Shown here piece by piece: positions 10,904 to 30,987 of a DNA stretch of 64,000 nucleotides. Position numbers and translations under genes: made by a program. The notes below the pieces were generated by a model. That model had not been told where the DNA came from. It did no database searches and was given only the letters and a program-made list of their open reading frames with translations. Position 1 is the stretch's first letter; every line of letters starts with the position of its first letter. The stretch is from an uncultured Thermoleophilia bacterium (GTDB taxonomy: Bacteria; Actinomycetota; Thermoleophilia; UBA2241). The stretch spans positions 29,108 through 93,107 of the forward strand of contig CAVOVA010000007.1 of the NCBI GenBank assembly GCA_963699725.1, given 5' to 3'.

Positions 10904-12081
10904 GAGTGGTTCGACTCCTTCTCCAGCAGTGCGGCCAGCGCGTGCAGCATCGTCGCCTGGCCCCAGTGCAGCATCGGGGTCCTGTTCACGACGAGCGGCC
11001 AGCGCTGGAAGTAGAAGTATCCATCGGCATCCTGCATGTTCTCGATAGTCCACGCCGCCACCTGCCGGGCGAGAGCCAGCGCGCGGTCGTCGCCGCGGGC
11101 CTCCGCGATCACCACCAGCGTCTCGATCGCCTGCGCGGCGCACTGGATGTCGACCGGCCACGTCCGGTCCCAGTAGTACCGGGGCGTACCGTCGGGGAGG
11201 AAGAAGTGGTTCGTGAAGAAGTCTGCGCCGCGGGCGAACGCGTCGCGGTACGTGTCGTCACCGCTCGCCCGCATGTAGTGCCGGAGCGAGTCCAGCACGT
11301 AGCCGGTGTGGAAGTTGTCGACCCAGTGCAGGTTCTCCGCTTCCCCGTACCACCAGGAGCCGTCGTCACGCTGGCAGCCCACCGTGTAGGCGATCGCCGG
11401 GGCGGCGACGTCCAGAAACCGCCGGTCCCCGCCGCTCGCCGCGGTGCGCGCGAGGGCTGCAGCCGCCAGCATGCTGGCGTTGTGCACACAGCGGTACGAC
11501 GACGGGATGTAGCTGATGCAGGTCCCCTCGCCCTCGGGGCGACGCTCGAGATCGGCGACGATGAACTCCGCCACGCTGGTCGCCGCATTCTTGTACTCGA
11601 CCTTGGCGGTGACCTCCCAGGCGTCCAGGAAGGCGTGGGCGATCAGGGCGGTCCACACGACCGTGGGCTCGCCTTTGGGCAGGTAGAAGACCCGCGACTG
11701 GTAGTCGAAATGGTTGCCCCAGCAGAGCCCCGAGTACCCCGGGCTCGCGGCCTCCAGCAGCCATGCCAGACAACCCTCGGCGGCGGCGAGATGGCGAAGG
11801 TCGCCGCCGATGCCGTACAGCTTGAGGTAGGCGCGGGCCAGGTACCCGACCGCCTTGGTGCTCGTCGCCGGCTTGATGCCGAGCAGAGGACGCAGGTTCC
11901 AGGGGAACCTGCGCACGCCCTGCTGCAGCACCTGCCGTGACAGCGGAGTGACGGCCAGCGGTCGCACCCACGAGGAGAGGCCGTCGAAGGGGTCGTACGC
12001 GGCGTAATCGTGGTCTTCCAGCCAAGCTTCGAGGCGGGAAGCGCTCTCCCCGAGCACGTCCGTGAGAGGCGCGTCGCTCAC
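10900..12081 (-). CDS. Conserved hypothetical protein, probable (alpha/alpha)6 six-hairpin fold (glycan epimerase, lyase or hydrolase-like)
   Basis: The ORF is 393 aa with high GC3 and is translationally coupled on both sides (GTGA at 12078-12081, ATGA at 10900-10903). Repeated aromatic and acidic helical-hairpin motifs are present (CWGNHFDYQS, DDGSWWYGE, WVDNFHTGY, DADGYFYFQ). The function is inferred only. Confidence 0.55.
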   Translation of the reverse strand: MSDAPLTDVLGESASRLEAWLEDHDYAAYDPFDGLSSWVRPLAVTPLSRQVLQQGVRRFPWNLRPLLGIKPATSTKAVGYLARAYLKLYGIGGDLRHLAAAEGCLAWLLEAASPGYSGLCWGNHFDYQSRVFYLPKGEPTVVWTALIAHAFLDAWEVTAKVEYKNAATSVAEFIVADLERRPEGEGTCISYIPSSYRCVHNASMLAAAALARTAASGGDRRFLDVAAPAIAYTVGCQRDDGSWWYGEAENLHWVDNFHTGYVLDSLRHYMRASGDDTYRDAFARGADFFTNHFFLPDGTPRYYWDRTWPVDIQCAAQAIETLVVIAEARGDDRALALARQVAAWTIENMQDADGYFYFQRWPLVVNRTPMLHWGQATMLHALAALLEKESNHS

Positions 12082-15876: not shown

Positions 15877-18255
15877 ATGAGCGTTGTGCCCCGCATCTCG
15901 TTCGGGATCATCGTGTTCAACGGCGAGCCGTTCACCCGCTACTGCCTGCGCGCCCTCTATCCGCACGCCCACGAGATCATCGTGGTGGAGGGAGGCCACG
16001 AGGGCACGGCAGCCGTGGCGACGCCCGACGGGCACTCCACCGACGGCACGCTTGCGGCCATTCACGCCTTCATCGCCGAAGAAGACCCCGACCACAAGGT
16101 CAAGCTCATCACCCGGGACGGGTTCTGGCCGATGACCGACGAACTCGGCCGGCGCCGCACCGCGCAGTCGCGCGCCTACGCCGAAGTGGCCACGGGCGAC
16201 TACCTCTGGCAGGTGGATATCGACGAGTTCTATCTCCCGGAGGACATGACCCGCATCCTGGAGCTCCTCGCGACGCATCCGGAGATCACCCAGGTGTCGT
16301 TCCCGTTCATCGACTTCTGGTCGCGGCCGCACTACAGCCTCGGGTCCTCCCGGCTCCTGCGCAGGAACCAGGTGCACCGGCTGTTCAAGTGGGGCGAAGG
16401 CTACACCTACGTGACACACCAGCCGCCGATCGTCCATGACGACGCGGGGCGAGATCTTCGGACGGTCAACTGGGTGCGGCCGGAGACGACGGAGCGCATG
16501 GGCATCTTCATGCGTCACTACTCGCACCTTCTGCCCTCCCAGATGGAGCAGAAGGCGCACATCTACCGATGCCAGGACCCGAGCGGCCTCGGCGAGTCGC
16601 TCACCTGGTACGCGGAGAGCTATCTGACCCTGCGCCGCCCGTACCACGTGGAGCGACACTACTACTGGCCCAGCTGGCTGGAGCGCTACGAGGGGCCTCA
16701 TCCGCCGCAGGTCCGCGCGATGATGGACGACATCGCCGCGGGACGACTCGACGTGCGGATGAGGAGGATCGACGACGCCGAGAGACTCCTCAAGAGCCGG
16801 TGGTACCCGCTGGGGGCCCAAGGCCTTCGTGCCGTCGAGCCGGTACGCCAACTGTGGAAGTTCGGCCGGCCGCCCGTGACGAACCTCCTTCGCGGGCGCC
16901 TCCCCAAGCGGTTGCGCGCAGCCCTTCGGGATCAGTCCGCCACGGCCACGGGCCGTGGCGGCGGAGCAGAAGCGGGCGGAGCGGCGTCGCCCACCGCACT
17001 CCCGACCCCGCCCAGGCGCGTCGTGTTCCTCGCCTCCGAACTGACGTTTCCACACGGCATGGCGGCCACCAATCGGATCGCGCTGCTGGCGCGCGCGCTG
17101 ATGGATCAGGGCATGACCCCCCAGGTGTGGTCCGTGCTGCCCGGCGAGCGAGGCGCTCGCACAAGCAACGTCGTCGCCGCCGGCACCTCGGCGGATGGCG
17201 TCCCCTTCGAGTACCTCGCGGGCTCTCCCGTCAAGGGGCTTACCTTCCTCCGCCGACGAAGCGAGCAGTTGCAGGGTTGGGCGTCGGTGCCGATGCGGCT
17301 GCGGCGTCTGGCTCGAGAGCGCGATTCAGTGGTCTATCTCTATGAGACCGTGCAGTACTGGACCTGGTCGAGGCTGGCACTGGTCGTCGCCGCCAGGGCG
17401 GCGCGCCTCCCCGTCGTGATGGAGCTCAACGAGCGGCCCTGGTCGCTGGCCGACGAGAGGAGGTTCCTCGAGCAGCTGGTCTCGCCGCTCTACGGCGTCC
17501 AGGGGGTCGTGTGCATCTCGGAACACCTCCTGCAGTGGGCGCAGGCCCAGACGGCAAAGACCGGCGCGCGCCGGCGACTGCTTCCCGTCCCGATCCTCGT
17601 CGACGTCGCCGAGCAGCGCGAGTCCGACTACCCTTCCGGCGACCCCACCCTCGTGTTCGCCGCCTCGGCCGACTACCGTCAGACCATCGAGTTCATCCTC
17701 GACGCGATGGCGCACGTTTGGTCGCGGCACCCCGCCTGCCGCCTGCAGATCACCGGCGTGAGGCCAGACAGCGGGCGCGGCCAGTGGCTCCTGGAGCGCC
17801 GGCGACAGGGTGCCCTTGACGCGCGGGTGGAGTTGCCCGGCCTGCTGCCACGCGCGGAGCTTCTTGAGCTCTACGGCCGGGCGCACGGCCTACTGATACC
17901 GCTGTTCGACGACGTCCGCTCCTCCGCTCGGTTTCCCACAAAGATCGGCGAGTACCTGGCCTCCGGGCGGCCGATCGTCACGACCGCCGTCGGTGAGATG
18001 CCGCGGTACTTCGAAGATGGGGTCACCGCCTTCATCTCCACCCCGGACGACCCCCGGAGCTATGGCGAGAAGATCGCCGACCTGCTGTCCGACCCCGCCC
18101 TCGCGGCGACCGTGGGACGCGCCGGGCGCGAGCTCTGCCGACGGACCTTCGACTACCGCATCCACGGGCCTGCTCTGGCAGAGCTGGCGACGGCACTCGC
18201 CGCGTCGCCGGCGGCATCCGGCGACCATGAGCCGCAGGGGGCCGTCCATGACTGA
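15877..18255 (+). CDS. Bifunctional glycosyltransferase (N-terminal GT2/GT-A domain fused to a C-terminal GT4/GT-B domain)
   Basis: The N-terminus PRISFGIIVFNGEPFTRYCLRALYPHAHEIIVVEGG is a GT2 signature. From about residue 375, RVVFLASELTFPHGMAATNRIALLARAL and the C-terminal FPTKIGEYLASGRPIVTT are GT4-like. Confidence 0.75.
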   Translation: MSVVPRISFGIIVFNGEPFTRYCLRALYPHAHEIIVVEGGHEGTAAVATPDGHSTDGTLAAIHAFIAEEDPDHKVKLITRDGFWPMTDELGRRRTAQSRAYAEVATGDYLWQVDIDEFYLPEDMTRILELLATHPEITQVSFPFIDFWSRPHYSLGSSRLLRRNQVHRLFKWGEGYTYVTHQPPIVHDDAGRDLRTVNWVRPETTERMGIFMRHYSHLLPSQMEQKAHIYRCQDPSGLGESLTWYAESYLTLRRPYHVERHYYWPSWLERYEGPHPPQVRAMMDDIAAGRLDVRMRRIDDAERLLKSRWYPLGAQGLRAVEPVRQLWKFGRPPVTNLLRGRLPKRLRAALRDQSATATGRGGGAEAGGAASPTALPTPPRRVVFLASELTFPHGMAATNRIALLARALMDQGMTPQVWSVLPGERGARTSNVVAAGTSADGVPFEYLAGSPVKGLTFLRRRSEQLQGWASVPMRLRRLARERDSVVYLYETVQYWTWSRLALVVAARAARLPVVMELNERPWSLADERRFLEQLVSPLYGVQGVVCISEHLLQWAQAQTAKTGARRRLLPVPILVDVAEQRESDYPSGDPTLVFAASADYRQTIEFILDAMAHVWSRHPACRLQITGVRPDSGRGQWLLERRRQGALDARVELPGLLPRAELLELYGRAHGLLIPLFDDVRSSARFPTKIGEYLASGRPIVTTAVGEMPRYFEDGVTAFISTPDDPRSYGEKIADLLSDPALAATVGRAGRELCRRTFDYRIHGPALAELATALAASPAASGDHEPQGAVHD

Positions 18256-19525
18256 AGAGGCACGCACGGAGGCCTCCCTGCGCCTGGAGCTGGATGGCGA
18301 GGGCCCGATCCCGGCCCTGACGGTACGCCATCCGGACCTGGAAGATGCCGAGTCGGCGGGCGCGCAGGTCAGCGTACTGATCGCCGGAGATGTCTGGTGC
18401 CCGGCTGATGCGAGCCTCTCCATCGAGCCCGAGGGCGTGCCGTGGGCGCCCTTCAACTCACGTGTGAGCGACCATGACGTCAGCGTGGTCAATCTCGAGG
18501 CCCCCATCTCCACGGCGGGCGCCGGTGACGCCAAGTCCGGCCCATCCCTGCGCTCTCACCGCGGCGCCGCTCAGGCGCTCAGGGCGGGTGGGTTCGCCGC
18601 GGTGAGCCTGGCCAACAACCACCTCCGCGATGCCGGCGATCGAGGCGTCCTCGACACCCTCGACGCCTGCTCGGCCGCCGGCCTCGAATGCATCGGAGCC
18701 GGGGCCGACCGGGGCGCGGCGCTGACGCCGCTCCTGATCGACGTCGGCGGGTTCACGGTCGGCATCCTCGCGGTGGCCGAGCACGAGTTCTCGATCGCAG
18801 GATCTCGGCGCCCGGGGGCCGCGCCTCTCGAGCCCTACTCCACCCCGGTGCGAGTCCGGGAGCTGTCTTCACAGGCCGACGCCGTCATCGTCATCGTCCA
18901 TGGGGGGAACGAACTCTACGCGCTCCCGAGCCCGCGCCTCAGATCCTTGGCGCATTCCCTGGTCGCCAGCGGCGCGGGCGCGGTCGTCTGCCACCACCAG
19001 CACGTGTACAGCGGAGTCGAGGTGGTCGGTGGCGCGGCGATCGTCTACGGCACCGGCAACTTCTACTTCCCGCCACGCTTCTCCCGCAATCCGGGGTGGC
19101 GCAAAGGATATATGGTGAGCCTCGTGGTGAGCAGGAGCGGTATCGGGAGCTTCCGCCTGCTGCCCTACAGGCAGTCCGACCCCACGCCCTCGGTACTGCC
19201 CCTGACGGAGCGCGAGGCGGCGGAGGTGGCGACGGACGTGCTCTCCCTCTCGCGGACGATCGCCGAGGAGGATGCCGTGCAGCGCGAGTGGTCCCGCTAC
19301 TGCGCGCGCCAGCGCACTCGCTACCTTTCCCGGATCCTGGGCCTGACGCGCCTGGAGCGGGCCGCCTTCGAGCGGGGGGTCTGGCCGTTCTGGCGGCTCC
19401 GGCGCGACGAACTGCCCACTCTCCTCAATCTCCTCACCTGTGAGGCCCACCGCGAGACGATGATCGACGTGCTCACGTCCGAGATCGCCGTCACCCGCAC
19501 CGATATCCCCCCGGAGGCGCCGTGA
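18248..19525 (+). CDS. CapA/PGA_cap-family metallophosphoesterase-like protein
   Basis: VLIAGDV...VVNLEAPI...GFAAVSLANNHLRDAG...ADAVIVIVHGGNE...VVCHHQHV...YGTGNFYF follows the CapA family motif order. ATG 18248 overlaps the upstream stop by 8 nt. Confidence 0.7.
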   Translation: MTEEARTEASLRLELDGEGPIPALTVRHPDLEDAESAGAQVSVLIAGDVWCPADASLSIEPEGVPWAPFNSRVSDHDVSVVNLEAPISTAGAGDAKSGPSLRSHRGAAQALRAGGFAAVSLANNHLRDAGDRGVLDTLDACSAAGLECIGAGADRGAALTPLLIDVGGFTVGILAVAEHEFSIAGSRRPGAAPLEPYSTPVRVRELSSQADAVIVIVHGGNELYALPSPRLRSLAHSLVASGAGAVVCHHQHVYSGVEVVGGAAIVYGTGNFYFPPRFSRNPGWRKGYMVSLVVSRSGIGSFRLLPYRQSDPTPSVLPLTEREAAEVATDVLSLSRTIAEEDAVQREWSRYCARQRTRYLSRILGLTRLERAAFERGVWPFWRLRRDELPTLLNLLTCEAHRETMIDVLTSEIAVTRTDIPPEAP

Positions 19526-20913
19526 TGATCCACCCCGTCCATTGGTACCGCCTGTGGCGGCTCGGAGCGACGGCGAAGCTGCGGCGGCTTCGCGACATCC
19601 AGTGGGCGCCCGCCGCGGAGGTCGAGAGGATGCAGCACCAGAGGCTCGGCGACCTGCTGCGCCACGCTCACGATCACGTGCCGTACTATCGTGAGGTCCT
19701 CGAGCGATGCGGCGTCGTCGATGCCACCGGGGGCGTCGACCTCACAGCCTTCGCCACCGTGCCGTTCCTCGACAAGGACATCATCCGGAGCAGAAGCGAG
19801 GACCTGCTCTCCGACGACCTCGAGCAGCGCCCGTGGTTCCGCAACTACTCGGGCGGCTCCACCGGCGAGCCGGTGGCCTTCGTGCAGGAACAACGGGAGG
19901 ACGACCACTGGTCGCGGGCCGTCACCCTCCTCTTCGACGAGTGGTCGGGCCGGGGACCGGGCGACAGATGCGCGCTGCTCTGGGGCTCGGAGCGCGATCT
20001 CTCCGGTGCGCCCAGCTGGCGTGTCCGCTATCGGCGTCGCACGCGGCGGATACTCGTCCTCAACGCGTTCGGCATGACGCCGGAGCACATGGACGAGTAC
20101 GTCAGGGATCTGAACCGGTACCGGCCGCGCCAGATCCTCGCCTACGCCGGGAGCCTCTACGAGCTGGCGCGGTTCATTCGGGACGGCGGCCTCAGCGTGT
20201 GGTCACCCGCCGGGATCATGACCTCCGCCGAGAGCATCTACCCCGAACAACGGGCGCTCATCGAGAGTGTGTTCCGCGCACCCGTCTTCGATCGCTACGG
20301 CTCGCGTGAGGCGGGCAACATGGCGTGTGAGTGCGACCACCACCGTGGCCTGCACGTCTCCACCCCCACGCACTTGATCGAGTTGCTGCGCCCTGATGGG
20401 ACGCTGGCTGGTCCGGGGGAGTCAGGAGAGATCGTCGTCACCTGCTTCGAGACGCTCGCCATGCCCCTCATTCGCTACCGGATCGGCGACCTTGCGACCT
20501 GGGCCGAGGGCCCGTGCGACTGCGGACGCGCCTGGCCGCTGCTCCAGCAGGTGAACGGGCGCGTGATGGACGCGTTCGAGATTCCCGGGAGCGGCACCAT
20601 CGACGGTTGCTACTTCACCATGGGCTTCTTCGGCCGCGACTGGGTGAAGAAGTTCCAGGTCGTCCAGGAGACAGCTGAGCTCCTGCGCGTCTTCATCGTG
20701 CTTCGCGACCCGGCCACTCCCAAGGAGCGCATCGAGCAAGACCTCGCGCACTACGACGAGCACGCGCGCATCGTCCTGGGCCCGGCCTGCCGAGTCGAGT
20801 ACGAGTTCGTGGACGCGATCACGCCCACGCCACAGGGCAAGCACCGGTACACCATCTCGAAGCTCTCCACGCAGGATGCCGGGCGCCGCCGTCAAACGGA
20901 ACATCGTCCCTGA
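19522..20913 (+). CDS. Adenylate-forming enzyme of the phenylacetate-CoA ligase / coenzyme F390 synthetase / CapK type
   Basis: The YSGGSTGEPVAF P-loop-like AMP-binding motif, a length near 460 aa and the general PaaK/CapK layout support the call. The start overlaps the CapA-like stop (GTGATGA). Confidence 0.7.
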   Translation: MMIHPVHWYRLWRLGATAKLRRLRDIQWAPAAEVERMQHQRLGDLLRHAHDHVPYYREVLERCGVVDATGGVDLTAFATVPFLDKDIIRSRSEDLLSDDLEQRPWFRNYSGGSTGEPVAFVQEQREDDHWSRAVTLLFDEWSGRGPGDRCALLWGSERDLSGAPSWRVRYRRRTRRILVLNAFGMTPEHMDEYVRDLNRYRPRQILAYAGSLYELARFIRDGGLSVWSPAGIMTSAESIYPEQRALIESVFRAPVFDRYGSREAGNMACECDHHRGLHVSTPTHLIELLRPDGTLAGPGESGEIVVTCFETLAMPLIRYRIGDLATWAEGPCDCGRAWPLLQQVNGRVMDAFEIPGSGTIDGCYFTMGFFGRDWVKKFQVVQETAELLRVFIVLRDPATPKERIEQDLAHYDEHARIVLGPACRVEYEFVDAITPTPQGKHRYTISKLSTQDAGRRRQTEHRP

Positions 20914-21028
20914 CAGCCTGGTCCCGACGGCCTGCGGAGCCGACACCGACGGTCTGGGGTCGTCGCACCCGTGTCCGGCGTGTCGGGCTTCGCCGTAGTC
21001 AGATCGGGCAACGCGGAGGGTCGAGCAC

Positions 21029-22999
21029 GTGATACAGAGGCGATTCACAGTGCTCCTCCTCACGGTCATCGCGACCTTCGCAGGAGGTGCGGCGCAGGCT
21101 CACGCCTGGAGCAACGGCCCAGAGGCCGGCAACGGCTTCGGCACCCACGATTGGGTGCTCACCGAGGCGCAACGCCTCGCGACGGCGCGCGGCGCCGACT
21201 GGCTCGATCTCACCGGGGCTCTTCCCTTGACGGACGACCCCGATACCCGATTCAAGGACTTCGCCCACCACCTGGTCGATATTCCCAACGGGATCGTCGG
21301 AACGGCTCCCGGACGCATCACGTACCTCTACCAGAGCGCGCTCGCCGCCCTCGCTGCCGGCGATGCTCGCGCCGCCGGCGTCGACGTGGCTCTGCTCTCC
21401 CACTACTACGCCGACATCTGCAACCCGCTGCACACCGGCCGCTCAGTCGCCGAGCGCCGCATGCACACGAGCTACGAACGCGCCGTAGGACGACTCACGG
21501 ACACCATCGGCGAGAACCGCTCCTGGGTGACGGCCGACGGTTTCGAGCGAGTCACCAACATCCGCGCTCGCGCGCTCGCCTCCGCGACCAGGACCAAGAG
21601 GTCCTACGCGACGTTGGTATCGGCCTACCGCAGCAGAGGTTTCAATGCCACGGTGCGCAAGATCACGCGCCTCTCCCTCAGGCGGGCGGCCAACGAGCTC
21701 GCCGATATCATCACGACGCTGGACACGGCGCGCCTGCAGGACGTTCGCAGCTTCGGCGCCGCCGGCGACGGCGTCGCCGACGACACGGCCGCTTTGCGCG
21801 CCGCGATGAGAGCAGCCGCCACCGCCGGCAGCGGGGTCTACGTCCCAGCCGGAGCCTACAAGGTGAGCACGATCTCCATCCCCAGCGGGATCGTGCTGCA
21901 GGGCGCCGGGCGGTCCGTCTCCTGGATCAAAGGGGGCGTGCTGTTCGGCAGCCGCGACCTGGTCAGGGGGCTGAAGCTGGGTGATGTCGGGCAGCGCACG
22001 CACAACGCCGCCTCCGCCAGAGAGACGACGTTCGAAGACTGCCGTTTCCGTGGCACCGTCCCGATCATGCTCGGCGACGACCACAGTTGCAGCTACATCA
22101 CGTTCCGCGACAGCGAGGTGGAGCGCTCCTTCGGAGGCTGGACCCCCGACGTCAGCCACAACAACATCATCATCGAGGAGTATTCGCCCGGTCCCTACGG
22201 GCACGTCGAGCACATCACCTTCGAGCGCTGCCAGGTGGGCGTGTCCAACGGCTCAGGCGGGCACGACACCGGGTCCCCCGGCGCCGGGCTCGTCGCCCAC
22301 TGCAATCGCAGGACCCCGATCCGGCAAGGCTACAAGGACATCCGGATCATCGACTGCGTGTTCGAGGCGACCGACGAGTTCACGCTCGACTTCGACGACA
22401 AGGTCAGGGCCGACGGCCGTCACTCCAGCAGCAAGGTGCTCATCGAAGGCTGCACCATCAAGGGCGGCGGCGTCCAGGGTCCGCGCAAGTTCGCGTACAC
22501 CATCTGCTTCGAAGCTCCCGAGGGCTGCGTCGTCCGCGACAACCTCATCTACCGCGGCTACATCAACACCTTCAAGATCTGCAAGAACGAGGACCCGGAC
22601 CCCGATCGGCGGCCGCTGATCGTCGAGGGCAACACCTTCGACCTCACGGTGGACAACGGCGTCGACACCCCCGAGGGCGTCAGCATGATCCGCCTCCACG
22701 GCGACAACAACATCTTCCGCGACAACACGATCATCACCGACCTGTCTGACGACACCGAGGCCGGGGACGCGCCCGGTTCCATCCTCAAGCTGTACTACTG
22801 CCGCAGGAGCAAGGTCACCAACAACAAGGTCTATGACCGCGCCACCACGCGGAATCCTCTCCTCCTCCACCTCTACTCCGCCAAACGCAACGCGATCAGA
22901 TCCAACTACTTCTGGAGCAGCCTGCCTACGGGTCTCAAGATCAGCAGACAAGCCGGCTCTGTGGCCAACCTCTTCACCGCCAACACCTACGATCACTGA
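21029..22999 (+). CDS. Secreted two-domain protein: zinc-dependent phospholipase C / P1-nuclease-like domain fused to a pectate-lyase-fold beta-helix
   Basis: The signal peptide ends AQAHA|W. The mature N-terminus W1..H14.W16 (WSNGPEAGNGFGTHDWV) matches the Bacillus PLC spacing, and HYYADICNPLH (H-x3-D-x5-H) and HTSYE (H-x3-E) are also present. From about residue 240, VRSFGAAGDGVADDTAAL..A...GSGVYVPAGAYKV is the classic beta-helix cap motif. Confidence 0.65.
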   Translation: MIQRRFTVLLLTVIATFAGGAAQAHAWSNGPEAGNGFGTHDWVLTEAQRLATARGADWLDLTGALPLTDDPDTRFKDFAHHLVDIPNGIVGTAPGRITYLYQSALAALAAGDARAAGVDVALLSHYYADICNPLHTGRSVAERRMHTSYERAVGRLTDTIGENRSWVTADGFERVTNIRARALASATRTKRSYATLVSAYRSRGFNATVRKITRLSLRRAANELADIITTLDTARLQDVRSFGAAGDGVADDTAALRAAMRAAATAGSGVYVPAGAYKVSTISIPSGIVLQGAGRSVSWIKGGVLFGSRDLVRGLKLGDVGQRTHNAASARETTFEDCRFRGTVPIMLGDDHSCSYITFRDSEVERSFGGWTPDVSHNNIIIEEYSPGPYGHVEHITFERCQVGVSNGSGGHDTGSPGAGLVAHCNRRTPIRQGYKDIRIIDCVFEATDEFTLDFDDKVRADGRHSSSKVLIEGCTIKGGGVQGPRKFAYTICFEAPEGCVVRDNLIYRGYINTFKICKNEDPDPDRRPLIVEGNTFDLTVDNGVDTPEGVSMIRLHGDNNIFRDNTIITDLSDDTEAGDAPGSILKLYYCRRSKVTNNKVYDRATTRNPLLLHLYSAKRNAIRSNYFWSSLPTGLKISRQAGSVANLFTANTYDH

Positions 23000-23051: not shown

Positions 23052-23666
23052 CTACGGGAGCGTCCGGATGACCCGGGCGGGATTGCCGGCGGCGACCGAG
23101 AGGGCCGGCATCGAACGCGTGACCACGCTGCCGGCTCCGATCACAGAGCCGTGGCCGATCGTGACTCCCTTGAGCACGATGGCGCCCAGCCCGATGAACA
23201 CGTCGTCCTCGATCCGGACGGGAGCCGTCGCCCCGACGTTGCCACGCCGAGCGGCTGGGTCGAGACCATGCCAATCGGCGTCGACGATCGTCACGTTGGA
23301 GCCGCACAGTACGTTGTCGCCGATCACGATCTCTTCGGCCGCACAGATCACCGTCCCGGTGAAGCCGGAGTTGGCGCCGATCTCGACGCGGGCGCCACTG
23401 CCGATGGCGCTGACCATGCAAGGCCTGTCCACGCCCACGGGGTTCGACCACGGCACGGACCGAAAGACGCAACCTTCGCCGATCACGATGCGGCTGCGCC
23501 CGACGCGATGGAAGCGCGCCACGCCGTAGAAGCGACAGCCGGACCCGACCGTGACGCCCTCCCAGGCGGCTTCGACCTTCACTGCCACGTGCGACAGAGA
23601 CGCCGCGAGACGCTGGGCGTCCTCCCGGAGAGCGGTACGCCGGCGAACGGCGAAGCGCCCCAGCAT
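23052..23666 (-). CDS. Left-handed beta-helix (hexapeptide-repeat) acyl/acetyltransferase
   Basis: Hexapeptide repeats run through VIGEGCV, VEIGANSGF, IVIGDNVLCGSNVTIVD, VRIEDDVFIGLGAIVLKGVTIGHGSVIGAGSVV. The start is uncertain (ATG 23666, or TTG 23699 overlapping the upstream gene). Confidence 0.75.
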   Translation of the reverse strand: MLGRFAVRRRTALREDAQRLAASLSHVAVKVEAAWEGVTVGSGCRFYGVARFHRVGRSRIVIGEGCVFRSVPWSNPVGVDRPCMVSAIGSGARVEIGANSGFTGTVICAAEEIVIGDNVLCGSNVTIVDADWHGLDPAARRGNVGATAPVRIEDDVFIGLGAIVLKGVTIGHGSVIGAGSVVTRSMPALSVAAGNPARVIRTLP

Positions 23667-23691
23667 CGCCCCCAGCTCCCCACGTGTGAGA

Positions 23692-25188
23692 CTAGCCAAT
23701 CCCCTCACCTCCCTGCTCGCGCCGAACCGCTCCGCCGGCGTCGGCGACCGACGCCGCAGGCAGGGCCGCGCGCCGCTCCGATTCGCCCGCCGCGCCCGGC
23801 GCCGGAGCGGTCTCCGCTGCCGGGACCGCATGCCCGGCCACCTGTGGCAGCAAGACACCCGCAGCAAGGAACGCGAGGAACCACAGGTTCATCGGATACC
23901 GTGTCTGGTCCATGAATCCCCAGCCGATGAACGAGCCGATGCCGGTAGCCACGAGGAACGTGAACCAGAGGAGGCCGTACTCCTCCGCCCACGGGTCCGG
24001 GCGGAGGAACAGCCAGAAGGCTCGCGCCGCGTACGCGACAAGCAGCGCCGCGAAGACGGCGGCGCCGGCAAGTCCCGTGCGGTAGACGATCGCGATCCAC
24101 GCCGAGTCCCAACTCCACTGCCTCATCATGTCGTACTGGGGGTCCTGCGCCGCGGTCACGAAGCCGCGACCGAGAAGGATGTCGTCATCGGCCACCAGCT
24201 CGACGGTGCTGGCAAGACGCGCGTTGCGGAGAGCGAGGCTGTCTGAGCTCCCGACCCCGCCGCCCTCCATCGCGTTCTGGATGCGACCCACGAAGTAGTT
24301 GCTCTCGGTCGGCAGGAGCGTCACCAAAGCCACGCCCACCGCCAGGACGACCGCACCGACGGCGATGGCGCGACGGAGCGCGAGCATCTCCTGACCGCCC
24401 TTGAGGAGACGCACGAGGATCGAGATGGCCGCCACCACGGCGGCCATGGCAAGCATCGTGCGTGTGTAGGAGATCCAGACGGCTACCAGATTGACGCCGA
24501 TGATCAGGTAGGTCCACACGGTCCAGCGACGCTTCGCGAACGCGAACGCGAGGCCGAAGATGAGAAGAGGCGACATGAACGCGAACGTGCGCGTGATCAC
24601 CTGGCCGCGGAACAGCGTCTGGAAGTACTCCTCGGCACTGTAGATCCGGATGTGCAGGCCCTGATGGACGACGAACAGCCCCGCGGCCACCGTGCTGACC
24701 ACGACGATGGCGTTGAGAAAGCGCATCACCTCGGTGCGCTCCGAGTGGTACACGATGCCGCGCACCAGCAAGTAGCCCAGCAGCATGAAGGCGAGGCCCG
24801 ACGCCTCGCCGATGGCGGAGCTCAGATCGGCGTGGCGGACGGCCGTCGCGAGAACGCTCAGGGCCACCACGCCGGCGAGCGCGATCAGCAGCAGTTCTTC
24901 CGGGAGCAGCCTGGGGCCGAAGGGAGGCGTGCGTACCTCCCCGGCCGCCCGTCGTGAGGGAAGCAGCCAGCCGGTGCAGACGGCCCACACGACGATGAGC
25001 CAGAGCATCGTGACCTCCACCGTGCTGAGCCGCCCCGGGATCCAGAATGGGCGCAGTTCCTCGAAGAACACCGATTGCCTGAAGAACTGGAGAAACGGGA
25101 TCCCGAGCAGGAAGATCCGGCTCCTCGCGGACTGCCAGACGAAGTAGGCCACGGCGGCGAGCGGCAACAGCAGCAGGAGCGTCCTCAC
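23692..25188 (-). CDS. O-antigen ligase / polymerase family (Wzy_C-like) polytopic membrane protein
   Basis: It has about 10-12 hydrophobic helices, a central loop region and a YTRTMLAMAAVV-type segment. Its position in the glycan operon fits. GTG 25188 is in a GTGA overlap with the upstream gene. Confidence 0.65.
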   Translation of the reverse strand: MRTLLLLLPLAAVAYFVWQSARSRIFLLGIPFLQFFRQSVFFEELRPFWIPGRLSTVEVTMLWLIVVWAVCTGWLLPSRRAAGEVRTPPFGPRLLPEELLLIALAGVVALSVLATAVRHADLSSAIGEASGLAFMLLGYLLVRGIVYHSERTEVMRFLNAIVVVSTVAAGLFVVHQGLHIRIYSAEEYFQTLFRGQVITRTFAFMSPLLIFGLAFAFAKRRWTVWTYLIIGVNLVAVWISYTRTMLAMAAVVAAISILVRLLKGGQEMLALRRAIAVGAVVLAVGVALVTLLPTESNYFVGRIQNAMEGGGVGSSDSLALRNARLASTVELVADDDILLGRGFVTAAQDPQYDMMRQWSWDSAWIAIVYRTGLAGAAVFAALLVAYAARAFWLFLRPDPWAEEYGLLWFTFLVATGIGSFIGWGFMDQTRYPMNLWFLAFLAAGVLLPQVAGHAVPAAETAPAPGAAGESERRAALPAASVADAGGAVRREQGGEGIG

Positions 25189-26456
25189 GCGTGCCCACCT
25201 TGGGACGCAGCGGCAGCATACGGCGTCGGCGCCGGCGGACCCCCGAGACCGAGCGCGTGCCGCACCGCGGCCGCCACTCGCTCGCGGCGGAAGAAGCCCA
25301 TGAAGCTCTCGATGCCGGAGGCGTAGGCGGCGGGCGTCTCGGACATGAGGCGAAGCGTCTCCCGCCGCAGGTCTTCATAGGACCCCTCCGCATACGTGTG
25401 ACCCAGGCCGAACGCCCGCGTGCGCCACGCCATGAGACCTCTCTCGGGCACCAGCACAGGGCGGCCGGCCTCCAGAGCCTGGAGCATCACGCCGCTCGAG
25501 ACGTAGTGGCGACGGTACGGCAGGACGGCACAGGGCGCGGCGCGCATGAACTCGCGAGCGACAGCGAAACTCGGGAGATACGTATCGGTCTCGAGCAAGG
25601 CTCCTCTCCCGGCCAGACTCTCCCGAAGTCGCGCAAGCTCCCCGCTCTGGTCGTCGACCGGCGGCCGCGCACCGCAGTGTGCGAACCGAGCCTCGAGATC
25701 GACGGCGAGACGCACGACAAGCGGGTAGCCTCGCCTCGCATGTGCCGTGCCATAGTACACGAGCACGTCCGACTCAGGGTCTCGAGCGCCGAACTCGCGC
25801 AGGCGCCCCAACCAGGCACGTTCGGTTTCGTTCATCGACCAGTCCTCAACGTCGAAACTCGCGAAGATGTCGGGGAGCCATTCGTACGGCCGGCGGTGAG
25901 TCCCGACGAAGACCTCGTCCAGGCACAGCGCGGCGTCGAGCAGGCGAAAGCGCGGCATGAGACGTTCATGGAAGACGTAGGGGTCCGTGCGCCAGGCGAC
26001 GCTGCCCCGCCGCCAGCGTCCGAAGCGGTTCCTCCACGGATCCGCGTCACGACCGACATGCACGTAGCGCGTATCACGCAGAAAGATGCCCACGCGGCGA
26101 CCCGGAATGCACCGGCGCCGCGTCATCTGCCGCGTCAGCAGATCGAGATGATCGTCGGCCTCGGTCAGCACGGTGATCTCGGCGGCCTGCTCGGTCACCA
26201 GCCGGCACAACGCGTCCAGGCTGATGTCGCGGCCCCCTCGAGGCAGCGCACTGGTGTCCACGAGCTCCACCGGCCCGCGGCGGCGCAGCGCGCCCTCGAA
26301 GGCAGCGCGGGCGGGCGGGTCGAGGCCGCCGAGAGAACCGGCCACGACCACCCCGCAACCGGCGTCGCGCAGGATGTCCGCCAGCGCCTTGCAGTAGACC
26401 TGACGGTGTCCCCCCAGGGCGGGCGAGAAGATCAGCACGCGTGGCGTGAGCGCCAT
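25185..26456 (-). CDS. Hypothetical protein, GT-B-like (unassigned glycosyltransferase or polymer-modifying enzyme)
   Basis: The ORF is 423 aa and ATG 26456 was verified. The N-terminus VLIFSPALGGHRQVY and the C-terminus LPYRRHYVSSGVMLQALEAGRPVLVPERG resemble GT-B Rossmann halves. No family signature was recognised. Confidence 0.45.
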   Translation of the reverse strand: MALTPRVLIFSPALGGHRQVYCKALADILRDAGCGVVVAGSLGGLDPPARAAFEGALRRRGPVELVDTSALPRGGRDISLDALCRLVTEQAAEITVLTEADDHLDLLTRQMTRRRCIPGRRVGIFLRDTRYVHVGRDADPWRNRFGRWRRGSVAWRTDPYVFHERLMPRFRLLDAALCLDEVFVGTHRRPYEWLPDIFASFDVEDWSMNETERAWLGRLREFGARDPESDVLVYYGTAHARRGYPLVVRLAVDLEARFAHCGARPPVDDQSGELARLRESLAGRGALLETDTYLPSFAVAREFMRAAPCAVLPYRRHYVSSGVMLQALEAGRPVLVPERGLMAWRTRAFGLGHTYAEGSYEDLRRETLRLMSETPAAYASGIESFMGFFRRERVAAAVRHALGLGGPPAPTPYAAAASQGGHA

Positions 26457-26473
26457 GGCCCTGCCCCGAGCGG

Positions 26474-27562
26474 CTACCGGGCCCGCTGCGCGGCGGTGCG
26501 CCAGGCGCCTCTCAGCACGGCGAACAGCGGCGCCGGGAGATGCGCCTTCAGCCACTTGCCCGGGTGCAGGCGGCGGGCCACCACGCCGGCGAGGATGTCG
26601 AGGCGGTGACGGTTGCGCCACAGGTACTCGCCCCAGCCGTATCCCTGCATGCAGCGGGCGCCGCGGCGCCGCCCGACCAGCGGCATGTACTCGGCGGCGC
26701 GCACGAAATGGGAGCGCCACAGGCGACGCAGCCGCGATGGCTCCACGGCGAGGCGCTCGTAGAGCAGGAGCGCCTGATTCATGCCGGTGATCGTGATGGC
26801 CGGCCAGTCGGTGAGCCATTCCTGTCCACCCTGCCCCATCAACGCGCACGGCTGGGCGATGTAGTAGCCTGCTCTGCCGGCCATGGCGTGGGCGAGGATC
26901 TTCACGTGCGGGAACAGGTCGTCGAGCGACGTGTCGGCCGCCGACACCATTGGGGAGTCGCTCATCCGCAGCAGGCCGGCGCAGCGTTGCCACTCCGTCC
27001 GCCGAAACACGCTGGAGAGGATCGACGTGTTGACTTCCACCGCATTGGACGTGCGCAGGTCGAAGATGTGCTCCCAGGAGTCAAGCCGCCTGCTCTCGGG
27101 CTCGCGCACGACGCACTCGTCGATGCTGGGCAGCCGCCCGGACCCTTCGTCGCGCAGGAACTCGTCGCGGACCGCCATCCGAGCGGTGAAGTAGTTGACA
27201 TAGAAGTAGTCGATCTCGCCGTGGGCCAGCAGGGCCTGGGTGATGGCCTGCAGCCCGCCGTCGAGCACGAGATCGTCATCCCCGAGCACCCACGCGTACT
27301 CACCCGAGGCTCGTTCGACGGCCAGGAGGAAGTTGCGACTCCCCACGTTCTCGTCGTTGCGGAAGTACCGTATCGGATAGATCGCCGAGGCGGTCGCGAC
27401 CACCGCCGGCGTGGCGTCGGTCGATGCGTTGTCCGAGACGACGATCTCCACCCGCTCGCCGAACGCCGCGCACTGCCGGCACAGTGACTGCAGCATCGGC
27501 TCGAGGAGCGAGGCGCGATTGTACGTGGGCACGCACAGCGAGAGCAGGGGATCGGCGCTCAC
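26474..27562 (-). CDS. Glycosyltransferase, GT2 family
   Basis: LSLCVPTYNRASLLEPMLQSL....VEIVVSDNASTDATP is a GT2 signature, followed by a DDD motif (VLGDDDLV). GTG 27562 is in a GTGA overlap with the wzt stop. Confidence 0.8.
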   Translation of the reverse strand: MSADPLLSLCVPTYNRASLLEPMLQSLCRQCAAFGERVEIVVSDNASTDATPAVVATASAIYPIRYFRNDENVGSRNFLLAVERASGEYAWVLGDDDLVLDGGLQAITQALLAHGEIDYFYVNYFTARMAVRDEFLRDEGSGRLPSIDECVVREPESRRLDSWEHIFDLRTSNAVEVNTSILSSVFRRTEWQRCAGLLRMSDSPMVSAADTSLDDLFPHVKILAHAMAGRAGYYIAQPCALMGQGGQEWLTDWPAITITGMNQALLLYERLAVEPSRLRRLWRSHFVRAAEYMPLVGRRRGARCMQGYGWGEYLWRNRHRLDILAGVVARRLHPGKWLKAHLPAPLFAVLRGAWRTAAQRAR

Positions 27563-28887
27563 GTTCCATCACCCGGCGCCGGGGCCGTCAGCTCGTCCTC
27601 CATCACGTCGGTCTCCCAGGCCAGGCGCGGCCGGATGGCGCCGATCCAGGGCCCGGTGTACTCCTGGCGCATCGCGCCGGTGTCATGCACCGTGAACGAC
27701 ACGACTTCGTCGGCGCGCACCTGCGGCCGCGAGCTGTCCTTGAGCACCCACGCGCTGACGCGATACATGCCGTCGTTGAGGAAGTTCCCGGGCACCGTGC
27801 AGACGGCGCGATACAGCCCGACAGGGTGCGGCCGGCACGACCAGCCGTCGTCGGCGAGGGCCGCCGACGGCGAGCTGTTGGCCGCGAAGACCGTGACCCC
27901 CGACTTGTCGTGCAGGTGCACCGCGGCCGAGAGCCGGTTGCCTTCTGCGAAGTTCCAGAACCAGATCTCGATCTGGATCTCCTCGTCGATGTCGACGTCC
28001 GCAGTGCTCTCGTCGCGCTGCGTGACGCGCACGGCATGCAGCTTGACCTGTTCCCCGCCCGGAGCCTCGTCCGGGTCGCTCCACAGCACGCTCCCCGAGA
28101 CGTCGAGCCCTCGCGTGATGTACTCGCCGACGACGTCGCTCGTAGGGCCGGAGGCGACCACCCTCCCCGCGTCGAGCAGGACGGCGCGCGAGCAGAGCGT
28201 CGAGATCGCCCCCATGTTGTGGCTCACGAACAGCACGGTACGGCCCTCGCTCGCGACGTCGCCCATCCTGCCCAGGCACTTCTTCTGGAACTCGAGGTCG
28301 CCGACGGCCAGGACCTCGTCCACGATGAGGATGTCGGGCTCGAGATGCGCCGCCACGGCGAACGCCAGACGCACGTACATGCCGCTGGAGTAGCGCTTCA
28401 CCGGCGTGTCGAGGTACTTGCCGATCTCCGAAAACGCGACGATGTCGTCGAACTTCTCGCGCACCTCGGAACGACGCATGCCGATGATGGCGCCGTTCAT
28501 GTAGATGTTGTCGCGCCCCGTGAGCTCCGGATGGAAGCCCGTGCCGACCTCGAGGAGGCTGCCGACGCTGCCGACCAGCTCGGCTCTCCCCTCCGTGGGA
28601 TGCGTGATGCGGGTGAGCACCTTGAGCAGGGTGCTCTTGCCGGCGCCGTTGCGGCCGATGATGCCGACCCGGTCCCCTGCCTGCACGTCGAACGAGACGT
28701 CGCGCAGCGCCCACATCAGCTCGGTGCGGCCGCCGGTAGAGGCGCCGCGGTGCTTGAGCCGGCGGAGAGGTGCAGCGGCCAGGTTGCCGAGGGCATCGCG
28801 CAACGTGGGGTTGTTGTCTTTGATGCTGCCGATGCGGTAGCACTTGCCCAGGCCCTCAATGGTGACGACGGTCTCGGGCATGCTCAC
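27559..28887 (-). CDS. wzt: Polysaccharide ABC exporter ATP-binding protein with a C-terminal glycan-binding (Wzt_C-like) domain
   Basis: Walker A GRNGAGKST, signature YSSGM, and Walker B ILIVDEVLAVGD. About 190 extra C-terminal residues are predicted to be all-beta (VKLHAVRV...IEIWFWNF...YRAVCTVPGNFLNDGMYRVSAWV). Confidence 0.85.
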   Translation of the reverse strand: MSMPETVVTIEGLGKCYRIGSIKDNNPTLRDALGNLAAAPLRRLKHRGASTGGRTELMWALRDVSFDVQAGDRVGIIGRNGAGKSTLLKVLTRITHPTEGRAELVGSVGSLLEVGTGFHPELTGRDNIYMNGAIIGMRRSEVREKFDDIVAFSEIGKYLDTPVKRYSSGMYVRLAFAVAAHLEPDILIVDEVLAVGDLEFQKKCLGRMGDVASEGRTVLFVSHNMGAISTLCSRAVLLDAGRVVASGPTSDVVGEYITRGLDVSGSVLWSDPDEAPGGEQVKLHAVRVTQRDESTADVDIDEEIQIEIWFWNFAEGNRLSAAVHLHDKSGVTVFAANSSPSAALADDGWSCRPHPVGLYRAVCTVPGNFLNDGMYRVSAWVLKDSSRPQVRADEVVSFTVHDTGAMRQEYTGPWIGAIRPRLAWETDVMEDELTAPAPGDGT

Positions 28888-29771
28888 ACCACGTCCGCGA
28901 AGGTGCGTTCCATGCGCTTGAAGTAGAACAGCCCTCCGATCAGCAACGCCAGCACCACCACGACGGAGATGGCCATCGTGTAGCTCGGTGGCTGTTCACC
29001 GAGGATCGCCCAGCGGAAGCCCTGGATCACGCCGACCATGGGGTTCAGCGAATACAGCGTGCGAAGGATCCCTTCAGGCACCTTGTCCACCGGGTAGATC
29101 ACCGGACTGAGGTACATCAGGAGCTGGACGAGGAAGGGAACGATGTACTGAATGTCGCGATAGAGGACGTTGAGCGCGGCGAGCCAGAGCGACACCGCCA
29201 GCGCCGTGGCCAGACAGAACAACGTGAGCAGCGGCAGCCACACCATCGTCCAGGCGTAGGGTACGCCGAAGATCGCCATGAGGACCAGCAGCATCACGAA
29301 CGCGATGACGAAGTCGACGACACCCGCGAAGATGCTCGAGATCGGGATGACGAGCCGGGGGAAGTACACCTTGGTCAGGAGATTCGCCCTCGCCACCAGG
29401 CTGACGCTCGCGCGATTGATACCCCCGGCGAAGAGGTTCCAGGGCAGCAGAGCAGTGTAGCTGAAGACGGCGTACGGTACGTCACTGCCCGACTGGACGC
29501 CGAGGAGCATGCCGAAGACCAGGGTGAACACGACCATGGTGACCAATGGATTCAGCACCGCCCAGGCCACGCCGAGGACGGCCTGCTTGTAGCGGACGAG
29601 CACATCGCGCCAGGAGAGGAAGAAGAGCAGCTCGCGGTAGCGCCACAGCTCGCCCAGCTCCAACGCCGACCACCCCGTCCGGGGTCTGATCACCACACCC
29701 GGGCGCTTCGGTGTGGGCGTGTATGCGGCGGGTGTGTCGGTCGGCACGTCCACGTCCGACGCCCTACTCAC
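28884..29771 (-). CDS. wzm: ABC-2 type polysaccharide exporter permease
   Basis: The protein is 295 aa with six hydrophobic helices and the N-terminal LWRYRELLFFLSWRDVLVRYKQAVLGVAWAVLNP motif typical of Wzm/TagG permeases. It overlaps wzt. Confidence 0.8.
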   Translation of the reverse strand: MSRASDVDVPTDTPAAYTPTPKRPGVVIRPRTGWSALELGELWRYRELLFFLSWRDVLVRYKQAVLGVAWAVLNPLVTMVVFTLVFGMLLGVQSGSDVPYAVFSYTALLPWNLFAGGINRASVSLVARANLLTKVYFPRLVIPISSIFAGVVDFVIAFVMLLVLMAIFGVPYAWTMVWLPLLTLFCLATALAVSLWLAALNVLYRDIQYIVPFLVQLLMYLSPVIYPVDKVPEGILRTLYSLNPMVGVIQGFRWAILGEQPPSYTMAISVVVVLALLIGGLFYFKRMERTFADVV

Positions 29772-30756
29772 GAAGCGCCCGCATCCAGTCGTACTCCGCC
29801 GAGAGGCCCTCGAGAAGGCCGACGGCGGGAGCGTAGTCGATGAGCTCGCGCGCCCTCGTCAGGTCGGCCCAGGTGTCCTGGACGTCGCCGGCCTGCTTCG
29901 CCTCGACACGGATGTCCGGCCGCGTCCCGGCCACGTCCCCGAGCATGTCGAGCACGTGAGTGAGCGACACGCGGGACCCGCCGCCCACGTTCAGCACGCT
30001 GCCGGGCGGTGCGGCGCCGGCACGAACGAGGGCCTCGACGATGTCGGCGACGAACGTGAAGTCACGCGTCTGGCCACCGTCGCCGTACACGACCAGCGGC
30101 TCGCCGGCGAGAAGCGCGCGGAGGAAGATGTTGAACGCCATGTCTGGCCGCTGTCGCGGGCCGTAGACGGTGAAGAAGCGCAGCGACACCGTCGGCACGC
30201 CGCGGCACGTCCAGTAGAGCTGCGCGAGATGCTCGCCGGCGAGCTTGGTCACTCCGTACGGCGAGATCGGCCGGCAGACCGCGTCCTCTTGCAGGGGCAG
30301 CGTGGGGCTGTCACCGTACACGGACGACGAACTGGCATAGATGACCCGCTCGACCGCGGACTCACGACACGCCTCGAGCACGAGTTGCGTGGCGAGCACG
30401 TTGTTCTCCGCATAGACGCGAAAGCTCTGACCCCAGCTCGCCCGCACTCCCGCCTGGGCGGCCAGATGATAGACCCGGTCGCATCCCCGGACCAGCTCTT
30501 CGAGCCTCGTCGCGCCGTCGCTGCCCGCCTCGGTCGCCAGCGAGTGGACATCAGTCTCGACGAACGTGTACCGGGGGTCGGCGAGGGCGAGGGTCAGATT
30601 GGCCTCTTTGAGCGCGCGCGGATAGTAGTCCTCGAACGAATCCACGCCCACCACCTGGGCGCCGTCGCGCAGAAGACGCTCCACAAGATGAGACCCGATG
30701 AAGCCGGCCGCGCCGGTGACCAGCACGCGCGATCCGGAGAGATCCACTGAATCCAT
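29764..30756 (-). CDS. NAD-dependent nucleotide-sugar epimerase/dehydratase (extended SDR)
   Basis: VLVTGAAGFIGSHLVERLL (GxxGxxG) and the SSSSVYG...Y..TK catalytic motif are present. ATG 30756 was verified. It is the first gene of the minus-strand exporter operon. Confidence 0.85.
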   Translation of the reverse strand: MDSVDLSGSRVLVTGAAGFIGSHLVERLLRDGAQVVGVDSFEDYYPRALKEANLTLALADPRYTFVETDVHSLATEAGSDGATRLEELVRGCDRVYHLAAQAGVRASWGQSFRVYAENNVLATQLVLEACRESAVERVIYASSSSVYGDSPTLPLQEDAVCRPISPYGVTKLAGEHLAQLYWTCRGVPTVSLRFFTVYGPRQRPDMAFNIFLRALLAGEPLVVYGDGGQTRDFTFVADIVEALVRAGAAPPGSVLNVGGGSRVSLTHVLDMLGDVAGTRPDIRVEAKQAGDVQDTWADLTRARELIDYAPAVGLLEGLSAEYDWMRALRE

Positions 30757-30987
30757 CACTGCCCACAGCCCCGTCGATCGTTGCCCGCAGGCCCCGTCGG
30801 GTGCCTGTCCGAGGAGTCGGCCACGACGACACGCCTCAGCCGACCCGACTCGCCGACATTGTACCAGCCCGCTGCCCTCGCTGAGCCGGCTCGCGACACC
30901 CTGTGTAGACATCCACGGCAACGCGCGCTCCTGCCGAGCAGGCCGGCCACAGGTATCATGTGCGGGCGGCAAGCCTCGGGAGGGCGG
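30757..30987. promoter_or_regulatory. Divergent intergenic region between the ABC-exporter operon and the AsnB-like array
   Basis: Inferred from gene geometry only. Confidence 0.3.

Follow-up and report, generated by a model that had tools for sequence, protein, structure and literature searches.

To our knowledge, almost all known zinc phospholipases C (PLCs) are secreted enzymes and toxins of Firmicutes, and the known S1/P1 nucleases, which belong to the same superfamily and share its trinuclear zinc chemistry, come mainly from eukaryotes and a few bacteria. The mannuronan C5-epimerases AlgE4/AlgE6 (2pyg, 5lw3) and the Vibrio polysaccharide lyase RbmB (9ozd) are right-handed beta-helix proteins that work extracellularly on a polymer of the producing organism. 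Here, we describe a gene (positions 21029..22999) in which a domain related to the former is fused to a domain resembling the latter. The gene lies in a 64,000-nt stretch of DNA, referred to below as the window, from an uncultured Thermoleophilia bacterium (GCA_963699725.1, contig CAVOVA010000007.1, 29,108-93,107, forward strand), in a region that, judged by its gene content, is an ABC-transporter-dependent (Wzm/Wzt) surface glycopolymer locus. Its zinc site appears complete, and in related loci the zinc domain has repeatedly decayed or been lost. Both folds are of known kinds. Neither the architecture nor the clade is treated in any paper that a search of open-access text brought up, in agreement with a preliminary description made from the DNA sequence alone, whose author knew of no characterised example.

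The open reading frame (ORF) encodes 656 amino acids (coordinates of all features are collected in Table 1), and its third-position GC content is uniform at 0.88, which fits the real genes of the window (overall GC 68-70%). In order, it comprises a signal peptide ending AHA/W, a 211-aa all-helical domain (the N-domain) and a 419-aa right-handed beta-helix. The leader is basic and hydrophobic, the junction reads ...GGAAQAHA/WSNG, and Ala26 and Trp27 are unchanged in an alignment across 11 homologues, consistent with the earlier proposal that cleavage after Ala26 would make Trp27 the first residue of the mature protein. The signal peptide is predicted to be of the Sec and not the twin-arginine translocation (Tat) type, because its Arg-Arg pair is not conserved in orthologues; Tat export was rejected, the pair also lying outside a Tat-motif context. 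The source genome is a metagenome-assembled genome (MAG) draft of 3.24 Mb in 28 contigs, 87% complete with 4.7% contamination, and a chimeric contig, or read-through of two adjacent genes, could be imagined as the origin of the fusion. Such an artefact is exceedingly improbable, as 11 more clusters (at 90% identity) from other samples, 34-78% identical to the window protein, show the same architecture, the reading frame is uninterrupted and its third-position GC even throughout, and the last helix of the N-domain (residues 207-233) runs almost into the beta-helix cap motif with no break in the structural model.

Neither Pfam nor NCBIfam scans of the whole protein gave an N-terminal family match, and the isolated N-domain reached PDB entry 8cqm only at E 0.03 in a single-sequence search. 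In contrast, a profile built from 11 homologous N-domains and searched by HMMER against PDB chains matched Listeria PlcB (8cqm) at E 1e-10 and Bacillus cereus PC-PLC (1ah7, 2huc, 2fgn) at ~1e-6 to 3e-6. The alignment to the B. cereus structures starts at the first mature residue and pairs W27, H40 and W42 with W1, H14 and W16, so that the spacing of the B. cereus N-terminus, which the preliminary description had cited, is indeed reproduced. The further pairs (window/B. cereus) are D69/D55, H81/H69, H125/H118, D129/D122, H135/H128, H146/H142 and E150/E146, with H125, D129 and H135 supplied by the block HYYADICNPLH (H-x3-D-x5-H) and H146 and E150 by the block HTSYE (H-x3-E), both of which had been picked out at that stage as ligand blocks. 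All nine metal-ligand positions of a zinc PLC have counterparts in this alignment, one Asp ligand being either D69 or the invariant D72. Among 40 diverse members of the family the invariant residues (mature numbering) are W1, H14, D46, H55, H99, D103, H109 and E124, and in the sets of 40 and 119 members the invariant or nearly invariant columns are the ligand columns.

The structural models agree with this assignment. An AlphaFold2 (AF2) model of the mature N-domain from a 40-sequence alignment was of high confidence (predicted local distance difference test (pLDDT) 94.9, predicted template modelling score (pTM) 0.92) and all-helical, with eleven helices. When it was searched with Foldseek, hits 1-17 were all zinc PLCs (TM-score on the query (TMq) 0.57-0.70), including PlcB, PC-PLC and the alpha-toxin N-domain; hits 18-28 were S1/P1 nucleases (TMq 0.46-0.59, E 0.01-0.2; 5fb9, 8qjm and 3w52 among them), and those beyond hit 28 were noise with probabilities of ~0.1. 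The Pfam families point the same way: PF00882 (Zn_dep_PLPC) was matched at E<=1e-3 by 85 of the 119 family representatives and the S1-P1 nuclease family PF02265 by only two, and all 11 close homologues matched PF00882 at E<=1 (best 9.9e-7), compared with only 3/11 for PF02265. The second ligand at position 14 and the final Glu are as in PLC, the second ligand of P1 nuclease being, as we take it, at position 6. An S1/P1 nuclease identity was rejected on the scarcity of PF02265 matches and on the ranking of nuclease structures below every PLC. Sequence profiles and models together place the N-domain in the trinuclear-zinc PLC/P1-nuclease superfamily, as a divergent member on the PLC side; the earlier description had named the superfamily as a whole, and no unrelated family claimed the domain in these searches.

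Compared with L. monocytogenes PlcB and B. cereus PC-PLC, the N-domain shares the all-helical fold (TMq 0.66-0.70; TM-score on the target (TMt) 0.58-0.67), secretion, a mature chain starting with Trp and the nine ligand positions with PLC-type spacing, but only 16-19% sequence identity. It is shorter between the last ligands (H109-H120, against H128-H142 in PC-PLC), and position 4 is Gly where PC-PLC has Glu. Because this Glu, which we take to be part of the choline pocket, is missing, a pocket of choline type is doubtful in the window protein. Unlike these two enzymes, the window protein has no evident propeptide, carries the fused beta-helix and is encoded in an actinobacterial glycopolymer locus. 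In overall design it resembles the clostridial alpha-toxin-type PLCs (1ca1 and 1olp, named from the PDB hit lists; TMq 0.57-0.69 to the N-domain), in which an N-terminal zinc PLC is likewise followed by a C-terminal all-beta domain that directs it to the substrate surface. That domain is, however, a small membrane-binding beta-sandwich in the toxins and a large glycan-type beta-helix here, and the window protein, known from sequence and models, shows no sign of membrane attack or toxicity.

The C-terminal 419 residues form a pectate-lyase-type beta-helix with certainty as to fold, as the preliminary description had recognised; the catalytic class is not certain. The cap motif (FGAAGDGVADDTAAL...VYVPAGAYKV) corresponds to the PF12708 match (58.7 bits, cut-off 27), and PF13229 (Beta_helix) follows downstream of the cap (30.7 bits, cut-off 25.9, E 3e-7), the two matches spanning residues 239-567. 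In the full-length AF2 model short, evenly spaced strands run through residues 247-655. Foldseek returned 108 PDB matches at E<=1e-3, and the best 50 of these were all beta-helices except for 8cqm (PLC) at rank 49. The nearest structural neighbours (E 4e-8 to 2e-7) were AlgE4/AlgE6 and RbmB, which share the N-terminal cap; others were GH87 alpha-1,3-glucanase, phage tailspikes, GH110 and GH28. AlgE4 was also the best single-sequence PDB match (2e-9). A further point in common is that the window locus carries genes of a uronate-forming dehydrogenase family and of a sugar epimerase/dehydratase family. The differences are that sequence likeness to AlgE4/AlgE6 and RbmB ends after ~100 residues, TMt is 0.4-0.5, and none of them has a PLC domain. 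The NCBIfam rhamnogalacturonidase model scored 35 bits against a cut-off of 500, and placement in a CAZy family by sequence was abandoned, as matches end at the cap. Column conservation was assessed in 19 homologues, down to ~30% identity. The Asn ladder is invariant or nearly so; outside it, E384, H392, E446 and D603 are invariant and D449, K478, Y508 and D538 nearly invariant. The conserved charged residues E384, H392, E446, D449, K478, D538 and D603 hint at an active site, and E384, H392, E446, D449 and K478 are candidate catalytic residues, mapped to no known site.

The gene closes a co-directional run that begins with a glycosyltransferase family 2 (GT2)-GT4 fusion gene, and a convergent acetyltransferase gene comes next. 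The preliminary description had placed it as the exported last member of a glycosyltransferase run, and this position recurs elsewhere. The locus around an orthologue of 74% identity (L058) is syntenic gene for gene, with the order GT2/GT4-PGA_cap-ligase-fusion unchanged, and the gene order recurs in a second, fully syntenic locus (L061). At 35% identity, a further fusion (L059) is found among Wzm/Wzt, GT2/GT4, PGA_cap and CapK_C genes in a different order. Locus L010 has in common with the window Wzm/Wzt, an orthologue of the protein of unknown family encoded in the convergent block, the initiating transferase and the epimerase, and beta-helix-only relatives adjoin Wzm/Wzt/Wzy_C genes (L060).

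In order to follow the zinc site within this locus type, 13 key N-domain positions were scored in the close orthologues. All 13 are kept in the window protein and in P0003, P0004, P0008 and P0010, and because this is so at an N-domain identity of 57-73%, the site would appear to be under selection where it is kept. P0005, the syntenic gene of L058, carries H125R and H146R; P0009 carries H40Q and D41R, and P0012 carries H135N and H146R; P0006 and P0007 have lost most ligands including the N-terminal Trp; in P0011 and P0013 the N-domain is N-terminally truncated and degenerate. P0014, from the syntenic locus L061 (10001-11479), has no PLC domain and has instead a lipobox-type leader (…GGAALAC) and a Ser/Thr/Pro-rich linker before the beta-helix. 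The more distant P0018 and its relatives, beside Wzm/Wzt/Wzy_C, consist of a beta-helix alone, which an Ala/Pro linker joins to a hydrophobic anchor at the N-terminus. The beta-helix is better conserved than the N-domain in every close orthologue (60-81% versus 42-73% identity). In a maximum-likelihood tree of the beta-helix the close orthologues (all but the P0018 group) form one clade with support of 100/98, within which intact forms branch early and decay or loss has occurred in at least three separate sub-lineages. Since syntenic loci mutate, truncate or replace the zinc domain, we read the beta-helix as the constant, locus-linked enzyme and the zinc domain as optional, intact here but accessory. 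The preliminary description had suggested that a phosphodiesterase activity releases or trims the polymer of the locus. This suggestion is weakened, as the pathway runs elsewhere without a working zinc domain, which argues against an essential release step; the domain calls and the glycopolymer setting uphold the remainder of the proposal, namely one exported protein combining both domains.

The same series bears on whether the N-domain might be non-catalytic even in the window protein, acting as a lipid- or phosphate-ester-binding tether at the membrane or as an intramolecular chaperone or pro-domain. Retention of the N-domain in P0005, P0006, P0007, P0009 and P0012 despite mutated ligands would fit such a role, as would the membrane tethering of the beta-helix-only orthologues (by the lipobox AALAC in P0014 and the anchor in P0018) where the PLC-fusion forms have a cleavable signal peptide. 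We nevertheless consider it unlikely, as the full set of positions in the window protein and four close orthologues, including the post-cleavage Trp, is what would be expected of a working metal site, the ligands are the family-wide invariant columns, and other family members obtain retention from separate wall-binding modules.

The account that we regard as reasonably probable is that of an enzyme with two domains, exported through Sec and active on the outer side of the membrane, where its substrate would be the glycopolymer of the Wzm/Wzt locus, with the beta-helix as its core and the zinc domain as an accessory. The beta-helix would most likely bind the sugar chain and then cut or modify it as a hydrolase, lyase or C5-epimerase, in parallel with the self-polymer enzymes that other exopolysaccharide loci encode. 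Our preferred guess is a uronate-directed lyase or epimerase, or else a chain-trimming hydrolase, the former because the locus has a uronate-forming dehydrogenase-family gene and the nearest structures are an epimerase and a lyase. Cleavage of the signal peptide would expose Trp27, whose free amino group, together with H40, D69/D72, H81, H125, D129, H135, H146 and E150, would hold three zinc ions. As the trinuclear site is complete in this genome, the zinc domain is probably an active phosphodiesterase here, and could supply the protein with an additional activity, for example cleavage of a phosphodiester in the lipid anchor of the polymer, in a linkage unit or in a nearby membrane lipid.

Several observations weigh against this account. 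On the side of the beta-helix, the non-enzymatic adhesin PfbA is among both its structural and its sequence matches, so that it could be a binder; sequence likeness to solved enzymes (AlgE4, GH55 and others) is confined to the cap (residues ~232-320), and no CAZy family catalytic motif of these enzymes could be aligned to it. On the side of the zinc domain, the isolated N-domain scores 13.6 bits (E 0.064) against PF00882, below the curated cut-off of 26.8; the site is lost in sister loci and is therefore not required by the pathway; and gene neighbourhoods across the wider N-domain family vary, with no dominant partner (119 neighbouring ORFs from 40 related loci, scanned with Pfam after crude ORF calling). 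The fusion is present in none of 24 same-genus species genomes, in which the two domains occur in separate genes. A 115-bp gap separates the ligase gene from the fusion gene, and the two are at most putatively co-transcribed. Finally, residues 16-37 and 76-90 fall below a pLDDT of 50 in the full-length AF2 model that includes the signal peptide (overall pLDDT 80.9, pTM 0.82); both segments are of high confidence in the model of the mature domain. The low PF00882 score can be attributed to divergence, because the homologues and the family profile score far better than the window N-domain itself, pointing to a relative that the present model under-detects. The N-domain is best described as a divergent subfamily, which has the ligands, the N-terminal Trp and the fold of zinc PLCs and falls short of the curated Pfam score.

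The roles of the two domains might also be reversed, with the zinc domain as payload and the beta-helix as a targeting or retention device, giving a surface phospholipase or nuclease for scavenging phosphate or nutrients or for attacking neighbours. The beta-helix would then bind an own or foreign glycan, in the same role as the Ig-like, CWB2, PKD and discoidin modules found elsewhere in the family. This arrangement would agree with the PfbA matches, with the lack of an alignable CAZy catalytic motif among the solved enzymes compared, with the prevalence of binding and anchoring modules among the commonest partners of the family (Big_1 43, MG4 13, CW_binding_2 (CWB2) 10 and CarboxypepD_reg 10 of 119 representatives) and with the paralogue P0212 in the same genome, which is stand-alone, secreted and intact in its ligands. 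We give it a small chance. Within the fusion clade, decay and loss affect the zinc domain, and the beta-helix remains in the locus at 60-81% identity; beta-helix-only relatives sit in the same type of locus; and charged residues that are near-invariant down to ~30% identity suggest an active site rather than a passive binder.

The N-domain family extends well beyond this locus type. An exhaustive HMMER search returned 526 50%-identity clusters at E<=1e-3, 213 of them at E<=1e-10, and genome hits came almost entirely from MAGs of Thermoleophilia, Coriobacteriia and other Actinomycetota. In nearly every case the domain begins directly after the leader, at precursor residues ~25-45, and its first residue is Trp in 115 of the 119 representatives. 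Members range from ~230-aa stand-alone proteins to more than 800 aa and in most cases carry Ig-like or wall-binding modules, with PKD, DUF5648 and F5/8-C (discoidin) modules following CarboxypepD_reg among the partners; a beta-helix is rare as a partner (2/119). Among the scanned neighbours there was a slight excess of wall-polymer genes: GT2 (4), TagF-like Glyphos_transf (3), TarS_linker (3) and LytR_cpsA_psr (2). Three of the scanned loci (L001-L054) have PLC-like proteins adjoining TagF-type CDP-glycerol glycerophosphotransferase and TarS-linker genes, and two have them adjoining LytR_cpsA_psr, which hints weakly at a link between some members of the family and teichoic-acid-like polymers. 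A broader proposal would make this actinobacterial clade of ~500 clusters a new functional class, trinuclear-zinc phosphodiesterases of Gram-positive envelope polymers, whose targets may be phosphodiester-linked wall glycopolymers, teichoic-acid-like chains and the lipid anchors of exported polysaccharides and not free phospholipids or nucleic acids. On that proposal the two domains of the window protein would work together: the beta-helix would hold or cut the glycan and the zinc domain would cleave the phosphodiester that anchors it, whereby a cell-bound polymer may become released exopolysaccharide. To us this is a speculative and rather improbable extension.

With a core beta-helix and an accessory zinc domain, as we favour, the system is of interest in several respects. 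Uncultured Actinomycetota of soil and sediment harbour a large clade that lies below database thresholds, the PF00882 model currently under-detecting N-domains of this type; the clade has kept the whole trinuclear site and is surface-displayed with varied partners. Records of close homologues at the Joint Genome Institute (JGI) read 'hypothetical protein' or 'Pectate lyase superfamily protein'. Nowhere else is such a domain so clearly wired into a glycopolymer assembly locus as in the window protein, which provides a starting point for the question of what these enzymes cut. The loci also amount to a natural experiment, since comparison of intact, decayed and absent forms in otherwise identical loci could show what the domain contributes. 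The folds themselves are familiar; the size of a neglected clade and the series of intact, decayed and absent forms within one locus type make the question tractable.

Table 1 Features of the fusion gene and its surroundings in the window
Feature	Position	Strand	Basis or remark
ORF, 656 aa	21029..22999	+	GTG start
Shine-Dalgarno GGAGGG	21015..21020	+	8 nt before GTG start; read directly from sequence
Sec-type signal peptide (predicted), residues 1-26, ends AHA before Trp27	21029..21106	+	Translation
Zinc PLC/P1-superfamily domain, residues 27-237	21107..21739	+	Profile against PDB PLCs, AF2, Foldseek
Ligand codon W27	21107-21109	+	Profile alignment
Ligand codon H40	21146-21148	+	Profile alignment
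Ligand codon D69	21233-21235	+	Or D72 at 21242-21244
Ligand codon H81	21269-21271	+	Profile alignment
Ligand codon H125	21401-21403	+	Profile alignment
Ligand codon D129	21413-21415	+	Profile alignment
Ligand codon H135	21431-21433	+	Profile alignment
Ligand codon H146	21464-21466	+	Profile alignment
Ligand codon E150	21476-21478	+	Profile alignment
Right-handed parallel beta-helix, residues 238-656 and stop	21740..22999	+	Pfam, AF2, Foldseek
Beta-helix cap motif, residues 239-322	21743-21994	+	PF12708 Pect-lyase_RHGA_epim, E 9e-16
GT2-GT4 fusion glycosyltransferase, first gene of co-directional run	15877..18255	+	Pfam
PGA_cap (CapA-like) protein	17993..19525	+	PF09587 at 8e-49
CapK/PaaK-like adenylate-forming ligase, directly upstream of the fusion gene	19522..20913	+	NCBIfam AMP-dependent ligase and PaaK models
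Convergent block	23052..30972	-	Pfam

Of the genes preceding the fusion in the co-directional run, that for the PGA_cap protein overlaps the GT2/GT4 gene by ~260 nt when taken as a mechanical ORF (510 aa). Its true start is probably near 18250, because orthologues are shorter (426 aa in L058) and start with a short overlap. The orthologue of the adenylate-forming ligase in L058 and L061 carries PF27533 (CapK_C). The convergent block encodes a hexapeptide acyltransferase, a Wzy_C-like membrane protein, an unknown protein, a GT2, Wzt, Wzm and an NAD-dependent sugar epimerase/dehydratase-family protein. The membrane protein (23692-25188, minus strand, 498 aa) has no Pfam match itself; Wzy_C is weak in the L058 orthologue and clear in the L060 counterpart. 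A WaaL/Wzy-like ligase or polymerase in an ABC-transporter-type locus of a monoderm raises the question of the polymer acceptor. Farther upstream are GT4s, a UDP-glucose/GDP-mannose dehydrogenase-family (uronate-forming) enzyme, a DegT aminotransferase and a Bac_transf initiating transferase. A gene that is kept in L061 and coupled to that of the uronate-forming dehydrogenase encodes a 393-aa protein (10900-12081, minus strand) with sub-threshold matches to GH88 (E 6.5e-4) and Pec_lyase (1.5e-3) and no significant PDB sequence match, which may be a six-hairpin glycan-processing protein. A pairing of a lyase with an unsaturated-uronyl hydrolase, which rested on these weak matches, was considered and set aside because the protein lacks a significant PDB match.

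Among related loci, L061 also lacks the PGA_cap gene. Two to three adjacent PF12708 paralogues, one of 1348 aa, are found in L059 (12269-16315), L060 (11540-13123) and G003:C7:152863-161675, which suggests local duplication and diversification of beta-helix proteins. P0015, a 427-aa protein from another metagenome, contains an 83%-identical beta-helix fragment followed by a C-terminal ~190 residues of Arg/Pro-rich nonsense; a frameshift or mis-assembly in a copy of the same gene is the likeliest explanation. The paralogue P0212 (295 aa; G000:C4:30986-31678, minus strand; locus L057:1303-2190, minus strand) is 46-48% identical to the zinc PLC-like domain, with the leader ending ALA/WSNG and every ligand intact. 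Its last ~45 aa form a tail that bears a YH...C...C..C motif and has no Pfam match at E<=0.1. This tail is also present at the end of 7 of 147 family representatives; one representative matched PF02805 (Ada_Zn_binding), and the tail may therefore be a small zinc-ribbon-like binding module.

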